Of a stretch of DNA of 64,000 bases, positions 3,014 to 62,914 are shown piece by piece. The notes beneath the pieces were generated by a model. That model was not told the origin of the DNA. It saw nothing but the letters and a program-made list of their open reading frames with translations, and did not search any database. Source of the stretch: Escherichia phage teqskov. The stretch lies in sequence record NC_054934.1; one strand, 5' to 3'. The position numbers were made by a program, and so were the translations under genes. How positions within the stretch are numbered: the first letter of the stretch is position 1; each line of letters starts with the position of its first letter.

Positions 3014-4786
3014 TTAATTAACTCCAGTCGCATCAAATACACCAGGAGCAGTCGTGCTCGTTACGGGTGTCATATTATGAACGACAGTATTTTTCTTAAT
3101 AACATTATTAGTATTATTGATCGAAGGAGATGCTTGTTGAACAGGAGCTTGCTGTGCTTTGTTCTTTTCTATTACCTGGACTTGTTTTGCTTCTGGCGAT
3201 TTAGCAGAAGTTTCAGGTTTGGCATTAGGCTGATTTTTCTTGAGCTCTTGATAAGTAGCATCAATTTTAGAAAATCTAGCAGCAAGTTCTTTTTTAACTG
3301 CCGGTGAATTATTTAAATCCGGGTCATCCATCCGTTTTTTAAGGTCTTCATAGGCAGCTTCAACTGATTTAACCGTTGAGTCTTTACTCATATCAGCTGA
3401 ATCAGCATATTTTTCAAAACGAATCATCGCGGCACGGGCTTCATTAGCCTTCATTAAAGCATTTTTTCTTTCTTCAGGTGAAAGTTGCTTTAATTTTTCT
3501 TCTTCTGCTGCGCGTTCTTCATCGGTTGTCAATGCTTCTTTATTATCAACGCCACGAATCCAGTTAGATGCACGAGTTTTCCAATTAGCAATTTTATCTA
3601 ATCCTTTTGCTATCGGACCAAGGTCTCCGTTCATTCGTTTATCTTGATAATTTGCAACTTTTTCCTGGTCTTCTTTATTGAGAGATGCTCCAGTAGAATT
3701 TTGGAAATTTTCTAGTGCTCTTCCTTCTACTTCATCAGCGGTATCCTTCATGCCAGGAATGACTCGAAGAATTGCAGCAGATAATTTAGCCATTCCAAGC
3801 TGAATAAGTTCTCCTAAATTATAAAGAACCTTTCCAAGCCCTTCTACAATAGCTACCGTCAAACCGCCCCAATCTCCCTCTTCCCAGAATTTTTTAATTT
3901 CATCAATAGAACTAAAGATGCTCTGTAATAAAGGACCCCATGTTCCGGTTTCGCTAGAGAATTTAGTAAAGTCTGTACTAAACAAATCCCAAGCCTGCGA
4001 AAATTTATCTGACCAATATTTGAAATGAACCATCAGCAGATCTATTCCAACAACAACAGCCAATATCATTGCAGTCATTTTAGCAGCTTCAATAGCAGCA
4101 CTAACGGTATACTTAAATAGCATGCTTGATATTTTATCAGTAATTGAAATGGATTTCTTAAATCCAAAATCAACAGTCTTTGTTAATTTATCTAAAGCTT
4201 GAGATAATTTTAAGTTAAATGCGTCTTTTTTCTGTTTTTCTTCTGGCGATTCTTGTTTAGGTTCAACTGGCTGAGGGGTAGGGAAAAAATCAGCATCAGG
4301 ATCATTATTAACTGCTTCAGGAGCCGGTAATAAAGGACCCACAGATTCAGCTGTATCGTCCTCAACAACTTTAACAGGAATAGCGCTTTCAACCGTAGCT
4401 AAACTAGTTCCTGTTTGTTGAATTCCAGCTGTCTGAATTTTTTGTTCTAATAAACTCGTTAATTTATCTAATTTGCTTCCGAGTGATTCGCCTATTTCTT
4501 TATTGATATTATTGCCAATTTCAACAGTCTCGGCAATTAACTCAGAACCAGCAGTAGTATCACTCACTGCGCTTTCTACATTGTCAATTGCTCCAATTAT
4601 TTCATTCGATTTTTCTTCGACAGTTTGAGCAATTAATTCAGAAGCAGCTTGAGCATCATCCAATTTCGTAGATATATCGTTAAGTCCAGATAAAGTGTTA
4701 GAAGCGGATTTAGCCGCTTCCTGTGTTGGTTTATTATCTGAAATAACTTTTCTACGCATCGTTTGCATTTCTTGTGGCTTTTTCAT
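3014..4786 (-). CDS. 29: tail tape-measure / baseplate hub protein gp29
   Basis: 590 aa as in T4 gp29; extended low-complexity/coiled regions; synteny. Confidence 0.8.
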   Translation of the reverse strand: MKKPQEMQTMRRKVISDNKPTQEAAKSASNTLSGLNDISTKLDDAQAASELIAQTVEEKSNEIIGAIDNVESAVSDTTAGSELIAETVEIGNNINKEIGESLGSKLDKLTSLLEQKIQTAGIQQTGTSLATVESAIPVKVVEDDTAESVGPLLPAPEAVNNDPDADFFPTPQPVEPKQESPEEKQKKDAFNLKLSQALDKLTKTVDFGFKKSISITDKISSMLFKYTVSAAIEAAKMTAMILAVVVGIDLLMVHFKYWSDKFSQAWDLFSTDFTKFSSETGTWGPLLQSIFSSIDEIKKFWEEGDWGGLTVAIVEGLGKVLYNLGELIQLGMAKLSAAILRVIPGMKDTADEVEGRALENFQNSTGASLNKEDQEKVANYQDKRMNGDLGPIAKGLDKIANWKTRASNWIRGVDNKEALTTDEERAAEEEKLKQLSPEERKNALMKANEARAAMIRFEKYADSADMSKDSTVKSVEAAYEDLKKRMDDPDLNNSPAVKKELAARFSKIDATYQELKKNQPNAKPETSAKSPEAKQVQVIEKNKAQQAPVQQASPSINNTNNVIKKNTVVHNMTPVTSTTAPGVFDATGVN

Positions 4787-51932: not shown

Positions 51933-52406
51933 ATGAAATCATATGCTCAATTTTTAAATGAAGCGGTGTTAAATGAAGCATCTAGCACTGAAATTCAAGC
52001 TGTTGCAAAAGCTGCCATTGCCGCGGGTAAATATTCCTATAAAGATGCTTCCGATGAATCACGATTCCAATTTGCTCGTGATATGAAAGCCGAAGGATTT
52101 ACAGGGAATGCAGTTAGTATGGCTTGGAAAAGTTTAGTTGCTACTGGAGCTGCTTTTGCAAAGGCTTCAGGTAAACCTGCTCCTAAGGCTGATCCTAAAG
52201 CAGCACAAGAAAAAAATATTGCTAAAGGAATTATCTCTAGGTATGAAGCAATTCTTAAAGAACTTTTGATAATCAAAACTGAAGGCCAAAAGCTAGCTCG
52301 TGCTTATAGTTTCAAAGATAACCCACATGTTCACTCTCTTGAATATGTTGAAGACATCCAAAAAATTATTAAAGACCGCATTTGGTCTGCTAAACAAATC
52401 AAATAA
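51933..52406 (+). CDS. CTS-bearing putative internal (head-packaged) protein, 157 aa, Lys/Ala-rich
   Basis: N-terminus MKSYAQFLNEAVLNEA resembles the CTS with L-x-E cleavage motifs; followed by a terminator. Confidence 0.5.
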   Translation: MKSYAQFLNEAVLNEASSTEIQAVAKAAIAAGKYSYKDASDESRFQFARDMKAEGFTGNAVSMAWKSLVATGAAFAKASGKPAPKADPKAAQEKNIAKGIISRYEAILKELLIIKTEGQKLARAYSFKDNPHVHSLEYVEDIQKIIKDRIWSAKQIK

Positions 52407-52981: not shown

Positions 52982-53194
52982 ATGACTACTTTAATTATTT
53001 GGTTCGACGAAAATGAAGAAACATACTGCGTGAACATTGGCGAAAGCCCAATGCCAGAATTTGAATCTTCAGATAAAAACTCGGTTGTATCTTGGGCTGA
53101 AGGTTATAAAGCAGCAAAAGGCGATGTTGAAATAGTTTACAAACTCTTGGGAGTAGAGTATAATACTCCCACGGATTATAAAACCCTTAATTAA
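52982..53194 (+). CDS. hypothetical protein (70 aa)
   Basis: ORF with GGAGAA upstream. Confidence 0.5.
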
Positions 53195-53208: not shown

Positions 53209-53802
53209 ATGAACATGCTGAAGAAAATTGTTGAGTTTATTCGCACTAAACTTGGTTCTGCTATGGCTAAAAATTTATCTGTTGAAGAACAGTATACTGC
53301 TGCGGCAGCAAAACTACTTGATAAGATTAAAGATCTAAAAACTGCTTCTGTTAAATCTATTAATGAAGAAAAACGTATTCGTGAACTTATTGTCGAAAAG
53401 AATCGACAGGCCGAATCAAAAGAGCGTGAAATTCGCAAGCTTCTTTCTGAAGGTCAAGATGTAACAATGCATGCTAAACTCGGCTTGCTATATCGTCGAA
53501 CAGCTGAACAGTTGACTACTAAAGCTGATGGTTATGCTGAAATGCGAATTGAAATCGCCAAGAAAGTAGTTGAATTGGATGATGCTCGCCAAGAACTTGC
53601 AGTTAAATTGGAATATATCCGTGAAACTCGTGCAGCAAATGCCCTTGGAATTAGTACTGCTGATGATGTAGTTGAAATTGCAGCGCTAACTAAAGTTGAT
53701 ATTGAAGATACTCTCGCCCGAGTTGAAACCTTTAATGGTAATATTTCTGGGGTTGAAACTACCTCTGCCGATGTTCAGGAATATATTAATTCTCTGAAAT
53801 AA
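53209..53802 (+). CDS. hypothetical coiled-coil protein (197 aa)
   Basis: charged, helical composition; followed by GGGGC-TTCG-GCCCC hairpin. Confidence 0.55.
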
Positions 53803-53843
53803 TGATAAGGGGCTTCGGCCCCTATTACTTGGAGTAAGTAGGA

Positions 53844-54449
53844 ATGAAAATGCAAAGTGATTTCAATTCAATGTTTGAAGAGTTCCAAAGACAGGTTGAT
53901 GTTCCAGACCAATTACTAAATGCTCTTAAACGCATGGCAGAAGGACGTAATTACTATTGGGGGTCTTCATATGAAACTGATGAAAGTCTTTCTGGATTTT
54001 ATAAAGGTAAAAAGTCTTTAATACGTCCTGGAATACTTATTAACAGTATTGAATCAATTCATTTATTAACATGCGATTTTGACGTTGAATTTACTGATTT
54101 TGTTTCTCCTGAATGGACGGTCTGTTATTTAAACGACGATTATGATTATCTTGGCGTTTATAGTTTAAGTGATGCATGGTTTAAACGTAATTTACAAAAG
54201 TCAAATTTATTCTATATTGATACTACTGTAAAATTTCAGGGCAAGAAATATTTCTTTACTCTTATAGTTGATTCTGAAACGAAGCATGAAAATAAACGTA
54301 TTCTTAGTAAAAAGAATATCTTAACTATTGTCGATGTTCTTTTTGATAAATTCGTAGAAAATCCTAATTTTGAAAGCGATTTATTATTAGAAAAATTTGT
54401 TAAGGAATGTAGAGAATATGTCAAAGCCATCACTATACCTTCCAAGTAA
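53844..54449 (+). CDS. hypothetical protein (201 aa) with C-terminal FVKECR motif
   Basis: ATG ORF; C-terminus shares motif and nucleotide repeat with the next three genes. Confidence 0.55.
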   Translation: MKMQSDFNSMFEEFQRQVDVPDQLLNALKRMAEGRNYYWGSSYETDESLSGFYKGKKSLIRPGILINSIESIHLLTCDFDVEFTDFVSPEWTVCYLNDDYDYLGVYSLSDAWFKRNLQKSNLFYIDTTVKFQGKKYFFTLIVDSETKHENKRILSKKNILTIVDVLFDKFVENPNFESDLLLEKFVKECREYVKAITIPSK

Positions 54450-54810
54450 ACCCTTAAAGTATGAATTAAAGCGTCAGATAATTTCTACTGATGTGTTAAT
54501 AGGTCCTGTGGTAGCTGTATCATTTGTGATTCTGCTGATTGCTGGAATGGTTATAGACGTTATGACTGATATTGAATCTGGTGCAATATTTGGAGCAACA
54601 CTAATTCTTCCATTGGTAGTTCCGCTTTTATTAGTACCTATAAATTGGATAGGATATTGGTATCAAGGAAGACACTATCGTAAACGTGTACGTGATTGGA
54701 AAGCTCAGTGTAAAAAGATTAAAAAGGAACATCAGCTTAAACTTGCTGCGCATGAATTTGATGAAATTATGAAATTTGTTAAGGAATCACGATGCAAAAG
54801 CCAAAACTAA
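54418..54810 (+). CDS. small membrane protein, paralogue family member (C-terminus KFVKESRCK)
   Basis: ORF-track start 54397 is TTG; ATG at 54418; two hydrophobic helices then a basic segment. Confidence 0.55.
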   Translation: MSKPSLYLPSKPLKYELKRQIISTDVLIGPVVAVSFVILLIAGMVIDVMTDIESGAIFGATLILPLVVPLLLVPINWIGYWYQGRHYRKRVRDWKAQCKKIKKEHQLKLAAHEFDEIMKFVKESRCKSQN

Positions 54811-55154
54811 ATAAAGTCAAATATTCTCTTCCTGAGGCACTATTAATTCTTGCCGTATCAGCATTTGCAGCTCTTGCAGGTAGTCTTATTGGATTGTTAA
54901 TTGACTGTTTTATTTTAAACATCGACGGCACAGTAATTATAACAGAGGTTTGGAGTGAACTTCGTTTTACTATAGCGATTTCATTATTTTCATTCTTTGG
55001 TACAATGTTATATTTTCATTATGATAATTTTAAAATAAATTGGCAAAGAAAAAAGGATTACAAAATACAATTAAAGGAATATAATAGCTACATGTCTTAT
55101 ATTGAAAAAGAATCAATGGAAGAGTTTGTGAGTGATTGTAGGAAAATTAAATGA
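54792..55154 (+). CDS. small membrane protein, paralogue family member (C-terminus EFVSDCRKIK)
   Basis: two hydrophobic helices, basic segment, conserved tail. Confidence 0.55.
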   Translation: MQKPKLNKVKYSLPEALLILAVSAFAALAGSLIGLLIDCFILNIDGTVIITEVWSELRFTIAISLFSFFGTMLYFHYDNFKINWQRKKDYKIQLKEYNSYMSYIEKESMEEFVSDCRKIK

Positions 55155-55639
55155 TTTTAAAAACTCGCTGGTATGATTTAGATGATGGGGACGATGGCAT
55201 TTCAGTTGATAGAGTTGATTGGAGTGGCTGTTCTGAAGATACAAAGAAACGATTAATTAGGGAGTTTAGAATGGGATATCAAGCAGCTAAGCCATCTACT
55301 GTAACAGATGATAAATTCGTGTGTATTCAAAATGGTCGTGCTAAGTTAACGAACGCTGATTGGTTCACAGATAAGAAGGTTATTCTGTGGTATATTATTA
55401 GTTTTCCTGTGACATCATTTGTATTTTGCTTCTTTGGAGAAAGTCCAGTAGGCAGAACGGAAGATTGGATTCTTTTAATTATACTTGTTAATATTTTTAC
55501 AGCAACAGTACTATCAGGAATATGGTGCGTGTTCATTGAAATGCCATGGCGGTTACGTAGGCAGCAAAAGATTTTTGATGAAAAGAAATATACTCAAAAT
55601 TTAAATAATTTTATCACTGAATGCAGGAAATTAAAATGA
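55151..55639 (+). CDS. small membrane protein, paralogue family member (C-terminus NFITECRKLK)
   Basis: two hydrophobic helices, basic segment, conserved tail. Confidence 0.55.
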   Translation: MILKTRWYDLDDGDDGISVDRVDWSGCSEDTKKRLIREFRMGYQAAKPSTVTDDKFVCIQNGRAKLTNADWFTDKKVILWYIISFPVTSFVFCFFGESPVGRTEDWILLIILVNIFTATVLSGIWCVFIEMPWRLRRQQKIFDEKKYTQNLNNFITECRKLK

Positions 55640-56076
55640 AAACATTATCAGCTGGTATTATCTTTATGACAGAAGATAAAGATTTATTTATGGGACGAGT
55701 TACTGGTTCTCGTAAGCCTGGAATGATGGCACATCGCTGGGATATTCCAAAGGGGCGTGTAGAAAATTCTGATTTAAGCGCATTAGATGCAGCACGAAGA
55801 GAATGCTCAGAAGAGACTGGTTTTAACAATTATAATCCAGACCTTCTAGAAGACCTAGGTGTATTTAAATATTCTAGTAATAAAGACTTACAGTTATTTT
55901 ATTATACGATTCCAGTAGAGCATGAGATGTTCAGAAATTGCCATTGCGAGTCTTATTTTGAAAATAAAGATGGTGTTATGATTCCAGAGATGGATGCTTT
56001 TGCCCTTATTCCTCGTACTCAGTGGCAATATGTGATGGGTCCTTCACTTTACCGAATAATGAACAGCCTCTTTTAA
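55621..56076 (+). CDS. nudE: Nudix hydrolase NudE
   Basis: Nudix box G-x5-E-x7-R-E-C-S-E-E-T-G (KGRVENSDLSALDAARRECSEETGF); 151 aa; alternative start at 55636 is translationally coupled to the upstream gene. Confidence 0.85.
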   Translation: MQEIKMKTLSAGIIFMTEDKDLFMGRVTGSRKPGMMAHRWDIPKGRVENSDLSALDAARRECSEETGFNNYNPDLLEDLGVFKYSSNKDLQLFYYTIPVEHEMFRNCHCESYFENKDGVMIPEMDAFALIPRTQWQYVMGPSLYRIMNSLF

Positions 56077-56607
<531 letters not shown>

Positions 56608-56666: not shown

Positions 56667-57083
56667 ATGACTCGTATTAATTTGACTTTAGTATCTGAAC
56701 TTGCTGATCAACATTTAATCGCAGAATACCGTGAATTGCCACGTGTTTTTGGTATAGTTCGTAAGCATGTGGCAAACGGTAAGCGCGTTAAAGATTTTAA
56801 AATATCTTCCGAGTTTATTTTAGGTTCTGGTCATGTTACGTTCTTTTACGATAAGTTAGAATTTTTGCGAAAGCGTCAATTAGACATTATAACGGAATGC
56901 TTAAAACGAGGGTTCAGTATAAAAGATACTGAAGTTCCTGACATCAGCGATATTCCAGTAGAATGGAAAAATGATTATAATCCATGCAAATCAGCTATTA
57001 AATTGAGTCAACAACGACTTGATGAAAAAATTTTAATGAAACCACATTGGTATAAGTATTACGGTAAAAATATTTACATTTAA
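56667..57083 (+). CDS. denV: endonuclease V (pyrimidine-dimer DNA glycosylase) DenV
   Basis: 138 aa; [17 protein letters not shown]... recognised. Confidence 0.9.
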
Positions 57084-57092
57084 AGGAAACAT

Positions 57093-57566
57093 ATGAAAAC
57101 ATATCAAGAATTTATCACTGAAGCAGCTATTAATTCTCAAATTATTGCTGAATCTTTTACCGATCTTTTGAAATTTAAAAAAGGTCAAAAAATCACTGCT
57201 GTATTGGATGATGGTACAGAAGTTGAGATGGATGTACAGGGATATAATTATGCAGTAGATGGAAAACTGTATAATAAATCTCATGCTAAATTTGATTCAT
57301 TTGACGACTTTGTTAATACAGTTGAAGATGAAAAAACTCGTAGATCCATTGCAACTGGTGATGCTAAGGTTCTTATGGCACATGGTCATGAACGCATTCG
57401 CGCTAAACAGAATAAAATGGGTGAAGATAATTTTGCATTAGTTGGTTATCAATCTGGTAAACAAACTTATGGCTATCAACGTACTGCTACCATGTATAAT
57501 AAAAATGGTAAAATCGCTTTCGTGAATAGTAAAGGTTCTATTCAGTACGTTAAATCGTTCAAATAA
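57093..57566 (+). CDS. CTS-bearing internal protein (ipII/ipIII locus), 157 aa
   Basis: N-terminus MKTYQEFITEAAINSQIIAE; position after denV corresponds to T4 ipII/ipIII. Confidence 0.6.
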   Translation: MKTYQEFITEAAINSQIIAESFTDLLKFKKGQKITAVLDDGTEVEMDVQGYNYAVDGKLYNKSHAKFDSFDDFVNTVEDEKTRRSIATGDAKVLMAHGHERIRAKQNKMGEDNFALVGYQSGKQTYGYQRTATMYNKNGKIAFVNSKGSIQYVKSFK

Positions 57567-62332: not shown

Positions 62333-62914
62333 ATGGCGAGTTTAATTTTTACTTATGCAGCAATGAATGCTGGAAAATCTGCTTCTCTTTTGACTGCTGC
62401 GCATAATTATAAAGAACGCGGAATGGGTGTATTAGTTCTTAAGCCTGCTATTGATACTCGCGATTCTGTCTGTGAAGTCGTTTCTCGCATTGGAATTAAA
62501 CAGGAAGCGAATATTATTACGGATGATATGGATATTTTTGAGTTCTATAAATGGGCTGAAGCACAAAAAGATATTCATTGCGTATTTGTAGATGAAGCCC
62601 AATTTTTAAAAACTGAACAAGTGCATCAATTGAGCCGAATTGTTGATACATATAATGTTCCTGTTATGGCTTATGGATTAAGGACTGATTTCGCTGGAAA
62701 ATTGTTTGAAGGTTCTAAAGAACTTTTAGCGATTGCAGATAAACTTATTGAACTAAAAGCAGTTTGTCATTGTGGTAAAAAAGCGATTATGACAGCTCGA
62801 TTAATGGAAGATGGAACACCAGTTAAAGAAGGTAATCAAATCTGTATTGGTGATGAAATTTATGTTTCTTTGTGTAGAAAACACTGGAATGAATTAACTA
62901 AAAAGCTCGGTTAG
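62333..62914 (+). CDS. tk: thymidine kinase
   Basis: 193 aa; P-loop AMNAGKS; C-terminal Cys cluster C-H-C-G ... C-R-K-H. Confidence 0.9.
   Translation: MASLIFTYAAMNAGKSASLLTAAHNYKERGMGVLVLKPAIDTRDSVCEVVSRIGIKQEANIITDDMDIFEFYKWAEAQKDIHCVFVDEAQFLKTEQVHQLSRIVDTYNVPVMAYGLRTDFAGKLFEGSKELLAIADKLIELKAVCHCGKKAIMTARLMEDGTPVKEGNQICIGDEIYVSLCRKHWNELTKKLG

Follow-up and report, generated by a model that had tools for sequence, protein, structure and literature searches.

A portable C-terminal tail on variable early proteins encoded behind e.6 in T4-like phages

Escherichia phage teqskov (NC_054934.1) carries, between gene e.6 and the Nudix hydrolase gene nudE, a row of four small genes whose products end in closely similar short sequences. 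We analyzed this row, which fills 1,796 bases (positions 53844-55639) of a stretch of 64,000 nucleotides of the phage, one strand read 5' to 3' (hereafter the window). The genes themselves are already known and annotated; what our analysis suggests is new is a shared peptide, here called the tail, mounted on variable cargo and possibly serving in targeting or docking. A previous reading of the window, made from the letters and their translations (the sequence-only reading), had taken the row for a duplicated family of membrane proteins kept under translational coupling, a pattern it called typical of superinfection-exclusion, immunity or holin-like modules.

Results

Gene content of the locus

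The segment belongs to Tequatrovirus. In DNA sequence its 1,796 bases agree to 99.3% with Escherichia phage AndreasVesalius and to about 91% with T4, where the same bases are annotated as e.5/e.4/e.3/e.2/nudE (GenBank AF158101). The four open reading frames (ORFs) are the Tequatrovirus genes e.5, e.4, e.3 and e.2 (Table 1), and the order e.6-e.5-e.4-e.3-e.2-nudE-e, all on one strand, is the same in T4 and in the annotated relatives. A longer ORF that opens with TTG at 54397 is not the annotated start of e.4. Each protein matches over its full length a separate PHROG family annotated without function, namely 2607 for e.5 (E=3.8e-107), 2604 for e.4 (5.2e-70), 2330 for e.3 (5.4e-58) and 2203 for e.2 (1.3e-77). 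Precomputed Pfam assignments place PF26873 on e.4 and PF26896 on e.2; our scans of the four proteins against Pfam, NCBIfam and PADLOC gave nothing above noise, and a PDB sequence search with e.5 and e.2 returned no match. Several public names, 'sulfurtransferase' (e.3, e.4), 'DNA primase' (e.3), 'putative phosphoserine phosphatase' (e.5) and 'host specificity protein' (e.6), find no support in the Pfam or NCBIfam scans. Public T4 annotation of these genes says only 'conserved hypothetical, predicted membrane protein'.

A full-text literature search with the gene names and T4 found no functional study, just genome-wide tables. Supplement file 4 of PMC9697503 classes the T4 e.2 to e.6 RNAs as early, and files 4 and 6 of the same supplement record all five proteins as detected, e.4 and e.5 as early, e.2 and e.6 as middle and e.3 as late. 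Supplement file 7 of a transposon-mapping study (10.1101/2025.11.20.689424) calls T4 e.2, e.3, e.4 and e.5 non-essential, and knock-down with dCas13d in T4 left fitness unaffected according to supplement file 15 of PMC11879866.

Three of the four proteins are predicted membrane hairpins

Hydropathy and charge predict that e.4, e.3 and e.2 are inner-membrane hairpins with both ends in the cytoplasm and a C-terminal part of 35-55 residues. The predicted transmembrane (TM) segments cover residues 28-49 and 57-76 of e.4 and residues 17-40 and 59-76 of e.3, followed in both by a basic cytoplasmic stretch, whereas e.2 begins with a soluble part of about 75 residues before its hairpin (77-95 and 106-128). 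The N-in/C-in orientation is predicted because Lys and Arg cluster ahead of the first hydrophobic segment and behind the second (positive-inside rule), with an acidic short loop between the segments. Two hydrophobic segments followed by a basic, Tyr/Trp-rich stretch had been pointed out in the sequence-only reading for the last three genes, and they are indeed present; e.5 has none. Among the Tequatrovirus homologues (37-88 per family), variability is found in the TM1-loop-TM2 region, and the cytoplasmic C-terminal part is almost invariant.

These features bear on the proposal that the genes encode lysis proteins of the holin/antiholin type, or superinfection-exclusion or immunity proteins. 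Like class II holins and the T4 proteins Imm and Sp, the predicted hairpins are small, cross the membrane twice with both ends in the cytoplasm and have a charged C-terminus; their genes lie 0.5-1.7 kb upstream of the endolysin gene e and are expressed early and dispensable, as are those of Imm and Sp, and the periplasmic loop with the TM region is the part that varies. No positive evidence for such a role came up, however. The proteins match no holin, immunity or defense-related family, and no immunity or exclusion family was hit in PHROG, Pfam, NCBIfam or PADLOC, searches that included no direct comparison with the Imm and Sp sequences. The timing and the lysis requirement are also wrong for a holin, as the T4 transcripts are early rather than late and the genes non-essential, whereas T4 lysis needs holin t. 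Neither class has a shared tail, e.5 and many other tail-bearing proteins are soluble, and the tail itself and its link with e.6 (below) would be left unexplained. A holin or exclusion role would be compatible with docking but finds no support, and we consider it quite improbable.

A common C-terminal tail on unrelated proteins

The four C-termini in the window are as the sequence-only reading gave them, the gene ends and starts agree, and the shared motif lies far beyond chance. The tail has the consensus [F/Y]-[I/V]-x-x-C-R, in which x-x are two free positions; it is preceded by a hydrophobic residue at -3 and followed by K, R, G, N or E. In e.5 the motif F-V-K-E-C-R stands 11 residues short of the C-terminus. 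We surveyed 15 loci from about 12 Straboviridae genera. The loci fetched from other genera were those of Mosigvirus APCEc01, Dhakavirus QL01, Kanagawavirus PEi20 and Q7622, Gaprivervirus VR26, Jiaodavirus KP179, Gualtarvirus MP1, Karamvirus PG7, Tulanevirus Aes012, Ishigurovirus ZPAH1, Pseudotevenvirus EBPL, Xman and RB43. All of them have genes behind e.6 whose products finish with this short sequence, with roughly 2-8 carriers per genome, and the literature searched held no description of this shared tail.

The strict pattern [FYW][IV]xxC[RK] was counted in 454 plus-strand ORFs (60,695 residues) of the 15 loci. It matched 45 times at 26 or fewer residues from the C-terminus and not once elsewhere; residue shuffles averaged 0.5 matches and reached 3 at most. 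About 38 of the matches fall in the e.6-to-nudE array, five in thymidine kinase and two, probably unrelated, in MP1. The thymidine kinase sequence, Y-[V/I]-S-L-C-R-K-H near the C-terminus, holds a zinc-ribbon cysteine and is a chance match to the pattern, a false positive that genome-wide scans should leave out.

Codon usage was counted in 33 aligned tails from 8 phages. The Arg codons were AGA (13), CGT (7), CGA (4), AGG (3), CGC (2) and CGG (2), the Cys codons TGT (16) and TGC (11), and the Phe codons TTT (23) and TTC (7). Variation thus follows codon periodicity, F, I/V, C and R being kept through synonymous changes. Because variation is confined to synonymous positions and all six Arg codons are in use, these data indicate that the tail is selected at the amino-acid level.

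When the tails were cut off and the remainders of 44 carriers from 13 phages compared by BLASTP, they fell into 26 clusters, 11 without and 15 with TM segments, with protein lengths of 80-326 residues. Since the carriers without their tails form 26 clusters unrelated by BLAST, the tail is portable, having either moved between bodies or persisted as the sole constant part of very old paralogues. With the same tail on 26 unrelated bodies, 11 of them soluble, what the genes have in common is therefore a shared tail, and not simply membership of a membrane-protein family. The tail of e.5-type proteins has an internal position, 9-26 residues away from the C-terminus.

A tail of this kind might act without a protein partner. 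It could be a membrane-targeting amphipathic helix that, like those at the C-termini of MinD and FtsA, binds the cytoplasmic leaflet directly; soluble carriers would thereby be brought to the membrane, and hairpin proteins would have their ends laid upon it. The hydrophobic residues at -3, 0, +1 and +4 would lie on one face with basic residues after them, the tail is predicted to be helical in models of low confidence, and the carriers include both soluble and membrane proteins. The hydrophobic face is just two turns long, though, an acidic residue commonly precedes the Cys, and lipid-binding helices conserve amphipathicity and not an exact Cys-Arg pair, all of which makes direct lipid binding quite unlikely. 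Alternatively, a basic Cys-Arg C-terminus could be a degron or a site of covalent modification, by which the lifetime or activity of these early proteins would be set. The tail would be exposed and cytoplasmic with its near-invariant Cys-Arg pair, and the T4 proteins accumulate at different times despite their shared early transcript. We rate this very improbable, for to our knowledge the tail is unlike known C-terminal degrons, the motif of e.5-type proteins is not terminal, and the e.4 lineage has no Cys in it.

Beyond the tail, any similarity is weak and limited to e.4 and e.3

Pairwise comparison bore out the idea of a duplicated membrane family for one pair at most. e.4 and e.3 gave a collinear, full-length hhalign alignment of 112 columns (P=1.2e-4 at 55% probability, from shallow profiles) and a Smith-Waterman z of 5.1, which shared TM composition may inflate, as shuffle statistics overrate pairs of membrane proteins; by hmmsearch the match reached only E=0.11-0.14 in a database of 253 ORFs. 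The two proteins have in common the N-terminus M-x-K-P-x-L, the length and the topology. On this weak collinear profile similarity, e.4 and e.3 are probably old duplicates. The hhalign match of e.3 with e.2 was confined to the last 13 residues, e.4 and e.2 did not match in hhalign, and e.2 found neither e.3 nor e.4 by hmmsearch (E>1). For e.5, all pairs scored z<1 and the only aligned stretch was the 10-residue tail. By these comparisons, e.2 and e.5 have only the tail in common with the others, in keeping with the four separate PHROG families. Wider searches added little: the e.3 profile found only e.3 orthologues and fragments among 1.84 billion representative proteins, nothing beyond Tequatrovirus-level relatives and one hybrid came from three word-indexed searches, and a scan of viral_contigs yielded 5 loci.

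These results can be set against the possibility that all carriers are diverged tandem paralogues of one small protein, whose tail would be the slowest-evolving remnant (a structural helix, for instance) and have no docking role. Besides the common length, topology, N-terminus and collinear profile alignment of e.4 and e.3, this would fit the best non-self matches of the e.3 and e.2 hidden Markov models, which are other tail carriers (E from 0.003 to 0.1), the direct repeats one gene length apart that tandem duplication would leave, and Morganella phage MP1, in which 6 of 7 consecutive genes after e.6 carry the tail. Yet the carriers are soluble or have 2-4 TM segments and show no detectable mutual similarity once the tail is removed, the tail is internal in e.5-type proteins, and a remnant held so strictly amid such divergence would still imply a specific function. 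We judge this explanation unlikely.

Tail codons contain the Shine-Dalgarno signal of the next gene

The genes overlap by 32 nt (e.5/e.4), 19 nt (e.4/e.3) and 4 nt (e.3/e.2 and e.2/nudE, ATGA in both), and in every upstream gene of the window a Shine-Dalgarno (SD)-like AAGGA or AGGAA lies within the tail codons (Table 1). In most carriers the tail Arg codon is separated by -1 to 10 nt from the next ATG. Where the distance is short, x-x consists of Lys/Glu-Glu/Gly codons that spell AAGGA, GAGGA or AAAGGA; where it is 8-10 nt, Arg and the following codon spell AGGAA, AGAGG or CGGAG. In Dhaka-, Gapriver- and Kanagawavirus, 22-37 nt separate the motif of e.5-type genes from the next ATG, and that start has an SD of its own. 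The view that the C-terminal codons themselves supply the next SD therefore holds for the variable positions of the tail only, whereas the residues F, I/V, C and R persist while their codons change synonymously. Translational coupling through the start/stop overlaps, as previously proposed, is plausible; the four junction RNAs are no more stably folded than shuffled sequences (z = +1.4, +0.6, -0.85 and +0.2). An Rfam search gave no match, and no promoter-like site was found at the four junctions. The best such site upstream of e.6 (Table 1) is a consensus match only, and promoter-like sites in the region are just as numerous as expected from shuffles. A RegA-operator-like reading of AAAUUUGUUAAGGAAU was dropped, since conservation follows codons.

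The junctions also contain direct repeats. Exactly two copies of the 16-mer AAATTTGTTAAGGAAT are present in the 64 kb window (54393 and 54772), and tolerance of up to 2 mismatches still yields just these two, against 0.32 expected; TG(T/C)AGGAAA(A)TTAAA(A)TGA is found at 55137 and 55622. Both repeats had been noticed in the sequence-only reading, with the first copy of AAATTTGTTAAGGAAT correctly placed, the second one base too far (54773) and the other pair at 55138 and 55625, and both are longer than was seen there. Pair A flanks e.4 (2 of 2000 shuffles score as well) and pair B flanks e.2 (0 of 2000); the two pairs have no nucleotide similarity to each other. Similarity within pair B runs past the ATG into e.2 and nudE, and because the reading frames differ there, this part is a repeat of DNA and not of protein.

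Such an arrangement might reflect constraint on the nucleotides, with the repeated sequence conserved as the translation initiation region of the next gene or as a recombination linker for cassette exchange and the peptide as a by-product. The nearness of the motif to the next ATG in most carriers, always with an embedded SD, the 16-nt exact and 40-60-nt approximate repeats at the junctions, and a deletion breakpoint within a repeat in T2-type phages (below) are what this would predict. It is highly unlikely, however, given that all six Arg, both Cys and both Phe codons are in use with codon-periodic variation, that F, I/V and C add nothing to an SD, and that the e.5-type motif of Dhaka-, Gapriver- and Kanagawavirus lies well away from a start with its own SD. 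The mutual dissimilarity of pairs A and B, the unstructured junction RNAs and the lack of an Rfam match likewise count against it.

The junction repeats (40-60 nt) behave as cassette borders between which genes are gained and lost. T2-type phages lack exactly e.2, so that e.3 runs straight into nudE, and the breakpoint falls inside the TGYAGGAAA repeat. Phages UFV05 and UFV11 carry a natural in-frame e.4::e.2 hybrid (P0143; positions 3075-3395 of locus L002 in UFV11), joined within TM1 and accompanied by deletion of e.3; the hybrid retains both hairpin and tail, and e.5 and the hybrid are all that this viable phage has of the row. As its crossover is a 7-nt microhomology (TCCTGTG), the hybrid shows only that in-frame hairpin swaps are tolerated, and we dropped it as evidence of e.4-e.2 homology. 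In the T4 reference, e.2 (positions 1911-2400 of locus L023) lacks one nucleotide in an A-run, for which one extra nucleotide 77 nt farther downstream compensates; it is annotated with 102 aa, and the frame is restored in the distal part with the tail. These frameshifts are either a laboratory-strain lesion or a sequencing artefact; e.2 of the window is intact at 162 aa.

Cassette exchange at repeats recalls the PeSL, an intergenic early promoter with a stem-loop at gene boundaries that shuffles genes in the plastic regions of T4-type phages (PMC2839356, PMC4122927). In both cases repeats lie at gene boundaries and genes are inserted, deleted or swapped between them. Unlike a PeSL, the repeats of the window lie inside coding sequence, match no promoter, have no structure and encode a selected peptide.

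The conserved neighbor e.6

The product of e.6 is a coiled coil with a conserved N-terminal amphipathic helix. It is far better conserved than the tail carriers and was found by tblastn in 1,105 phage records. In ten genera (Tequatro-, Mosig-, Dhaka-, Gapriver-, Kanagawa-, Jiaoda-, Gualtar-, Tulane-, Ishiguro- and Pseudotevenvirus) the gene immediately behind e.6 bears a tail. When a profile of nine e.6 orthologues was run against all PDB sequences, the top match was Vipp1/IM30 sll0617 (E=0.0023, residues 1-137 against 1-139), and 9 of the 16 matches listed were Vipp1 or PspA; hhalign against Vipp1 residues 1-139 gave P=2.8e-5 at 74% probability. The literature searched held no report of e.6 as a PspA/Vipp1 relative. 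We regard this relationship as a lead, with about an even chance of being right, or less.

Other features of the window and related loci

A stable hairpin of the type GGGGCUUCGGCCCC is separated from the ATG of e.5 by a GGAG-containing leader, and hairpins of this type also lie 5' of the e.5-like gene in KP179, VR26 and MP1. In genera other than Tequatrovirus, a second tandem family immediately follows the e.3-like gene. It comprises 3-5 small soluble proteins of 65-106 aa that end in G-x-W-[V/I]-S-S-S-x-x-C-stop or a close variant (W-x-P-S-S-C), the stop and the next SD usually reading TGC/TGT TAA GGA A; the window has no such genes. Several genera encode a conserved acidic protein of about 75-78 aa (MSIAIYIKSES...SWERDDE type) between the last tail gene and nudE; Tequatrovirus lacks this protein, its e.2 abutting nudE. 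A very conserved 228-aa protein (MNSSKVFNSQARAVGGF...EFPMEGW) is encoded directly 5' of the e.2-like gene in Mosig-, Dhaka-, Kanagawa- and Gaprivervirus and is not found at the corresponding position in the window.

Table 1. Positions of the genes and sequence features. Plain numbers refer to the window; numbers after an L label refer to the related locus of that label (L012, VR26; L014, KP179; L016, MP1).
Feature	Position	Strand	Remarks
Candidate early promoter of the e.6-e.5-e.4-e.3-e.2-nudE unit	53136..53164	+	Best sigma-70-like match, TTTACA-17-TATAAT, 11/12, upstream of e.6
e.6	53209..53802	+	197-aa coiled-coil protein, conserved across Straboviridae
GGGGCUUCGGCCCC hairpin	53808..53823	+	UUCG tetraloop; between e.6 and e.5
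e.5	53844..54449	+	201 aa, no TM segment, soluble; C-terminus ..KFVKECREYVKAITIPSK
e.4	54418..54810	+	ATG start, 130 aa; C-terminus ..KFVKESRCKSQN; motif variant F-V-K-E-S-R-C
e.3	54792..55154	+	120 aa; C-terminus F-V-S-D-C-R-K-I-K (..EFVSDCRKIK)
e.2	55151..55639	+	162 aa; C-terminus F-I-T-E-C-R-K-L-K (..NFITECRKLK)
nudE	55636..56076	+	Nudix hydrolase; closes the array; ATG overlaps e.2 stop codon
e	56113-56607		Lysozyme
denV	56667-57083		
e.5 tail codons	54396..54413	+	TTT GTT AAG GAA TGT AGA; AAGGA is the SD for e.4 (ATG 54418)
e.4 tail codons	54775-54792	+	Within right copy of repeat A
e.3 tail codons	55125-55142	+	Within left copy of repeat B, with AGGAAA SD and ATGA overlap
e.2 tail codons	55610-55627	+	Within right copy of repeat B
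Direct repeat A, left	54393..54435	+	e.5/e.4 junction
Direct repeat A, right	54772..54809	+	e.4/e.3 junction
Direct repeat B, left	55125..55185	+	e.3/e.2 junction
Direct repeat B, right	55610..55669	+	e.2/nudE junction
Thymidine kinase	62333-62914; L012 13145-13717; L013 13175-13753; L014 13865-14434; L016 13059-13637		Chance pattern match
e.6 orthologues	L004 3116-3709; L010 3716-4309; L016 3053-3649; L017 5995-6582; L022 4001-4591		
Second tandem family	L004 5060-5854; L010 5165-6204; L011 729-1803, 2143-2343; L012 2271-3539; L013 2158-3236; L018 7302-7828		
MSIAIYIKSES-type protein	L010 9629-9865; L012 6754-6990; L014 6768-7004; L016 6541-6765; L018 10932-11162		
228-aa MNSSKVFNSQARAVGGF protein	L004 7788-8474; L010 8353-9039; L011 4243-4929; L012 5496-6182; L013 5476-6189		

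Discussion

The tail described here is compatible with a helix, predicted to be cytoplasmic, strongly selected, portable and confined to the co-transcribed array behind e.6. Our tentative explanation, which we hold to be quite possible though a little short of probable, is that it is a docking peptide through which changeable accessory proteins bind a single shared partner on the cytoplasmic side of the inner membrane. The tail would form a two-turn amphipathic helix at or near the C-terminus, uniting e.5, e.4, e.3 and e.2, and the candidate partner would be the e.6 product, which is always adjacent and co-transcribed and may be a membrane-binding coiled coil of the Vipp1/PspA type. The variable bodies (TM hairpins, loops and soluble domains) would then supply activities specific to host or strain, which would account for the lack of any visible effect on laboratory K-12 or B strains. 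As a second and separate layer, the free tail positions (x-x and the residue after R) are filled by codons that spell the SD of the next gene, so that the genes are read as one tightly packed unit. A bolder version, which we find doubtful, would make the tail an address label that plugs interchangeable, fast-evolving early effectors into e.6 as a phage-encoded membrane remodeler of the Vipp1/PspA (ESCRT-III) type.

Several observations weigh against docking on e.6. We infer docking, the identity of the partner and any phenotype from conservation, portability and synteny, and any function of the e genes would have to be conditional, because there is no laboratory phenotype. The Cys is not strictly required, being replaced by Ser, Ile or Val in the e.4 lineage, and in Karamvirus PG7 two small tailless genes lie between e.6 and the carriers. 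AlphaFold2 models of e.5 (single sequence) and e.2 (with 39 close homologues) reached pLDDT scores (predicted local distance difference test) of 38 and 52, too poor for an assessment of tail packing or a fold search. As for the partner, the Pfam family PspA_IM30 (PF04012) did not match e.6, nor did an approximate E. coli PspA sequence; a broader e.6 profile weakened the Vipp1 matches to E=0.04, and generic coiled-coil models such as SMC score similarly to Vipp1.

The nearest analogue in principle is the capsid targeting sequence of the T4 internal proteins, the N-terminal MKTYQEFIAE, which is cleaved after Glu by the prohead protease and is borne by late virion proteins. It is likewise a short terminal peptide on unrelated proteins of one phage with one destination. 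Whereas the capsid targeting sequence is N-terminal, cleaved and late, the tail is C-terminal, has a Cys-Arg core and is carried by early proteins, many of them in the membrane. We rejected a reading of F-I-x-E in the tail as a capsid-targeting or prohead-protease site: Glu is present in only 17 of the 33 tails, which are C-terminal and belong to early membrane proteins. Two 157-aa proteins of the capsid-targeting type are encoded in the window itself, at 51933-52406 (MKSYAQFLNE/A) and 57093-57566 (MKTYQEFITE/A); the 'FITE' of the latter is identical to part of the e.2 tail (NNFITECRK), probably by coincidence.

The proposed pairing with e.6 can be compared with the Psp system, in which PspA has the membrane partners PspB and PspC. 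There, too, small inner-membrane proteins whose tails lie in the cytoplasm are encoded just downstream of a coiled-coil protein that has an N-terminal amphipathic helix. For e.6 itself, however, the similarity is marginal, e.4, e.3 and e.2 have none to PspB or PspC, and many carriers are soluble.

About half of the T4 genes are without known function, and many of these are small early membrane proteins encoded in plastic regions. A transferable tag would group roughly 2-8 genes per genome, in about a dozen genera, into a single candidate system and would name a candidate partner for it. The locus is also a case of dual coding, in which a selected peptide has the ribosome-binding site of the next gene in its free positions, and it illustrates gain and loss of cassettes between junction repeats. 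If e.6 is a relative of Vipp1/PspA, T4-like phages would carry their own Psp-like module for membrane maintenance, with swappable adaptors as effectors diversified behind one docking interface, and this module may protect or reshape the inner membrane of the host, or counter membrane-acting defenses, in particular hosts.

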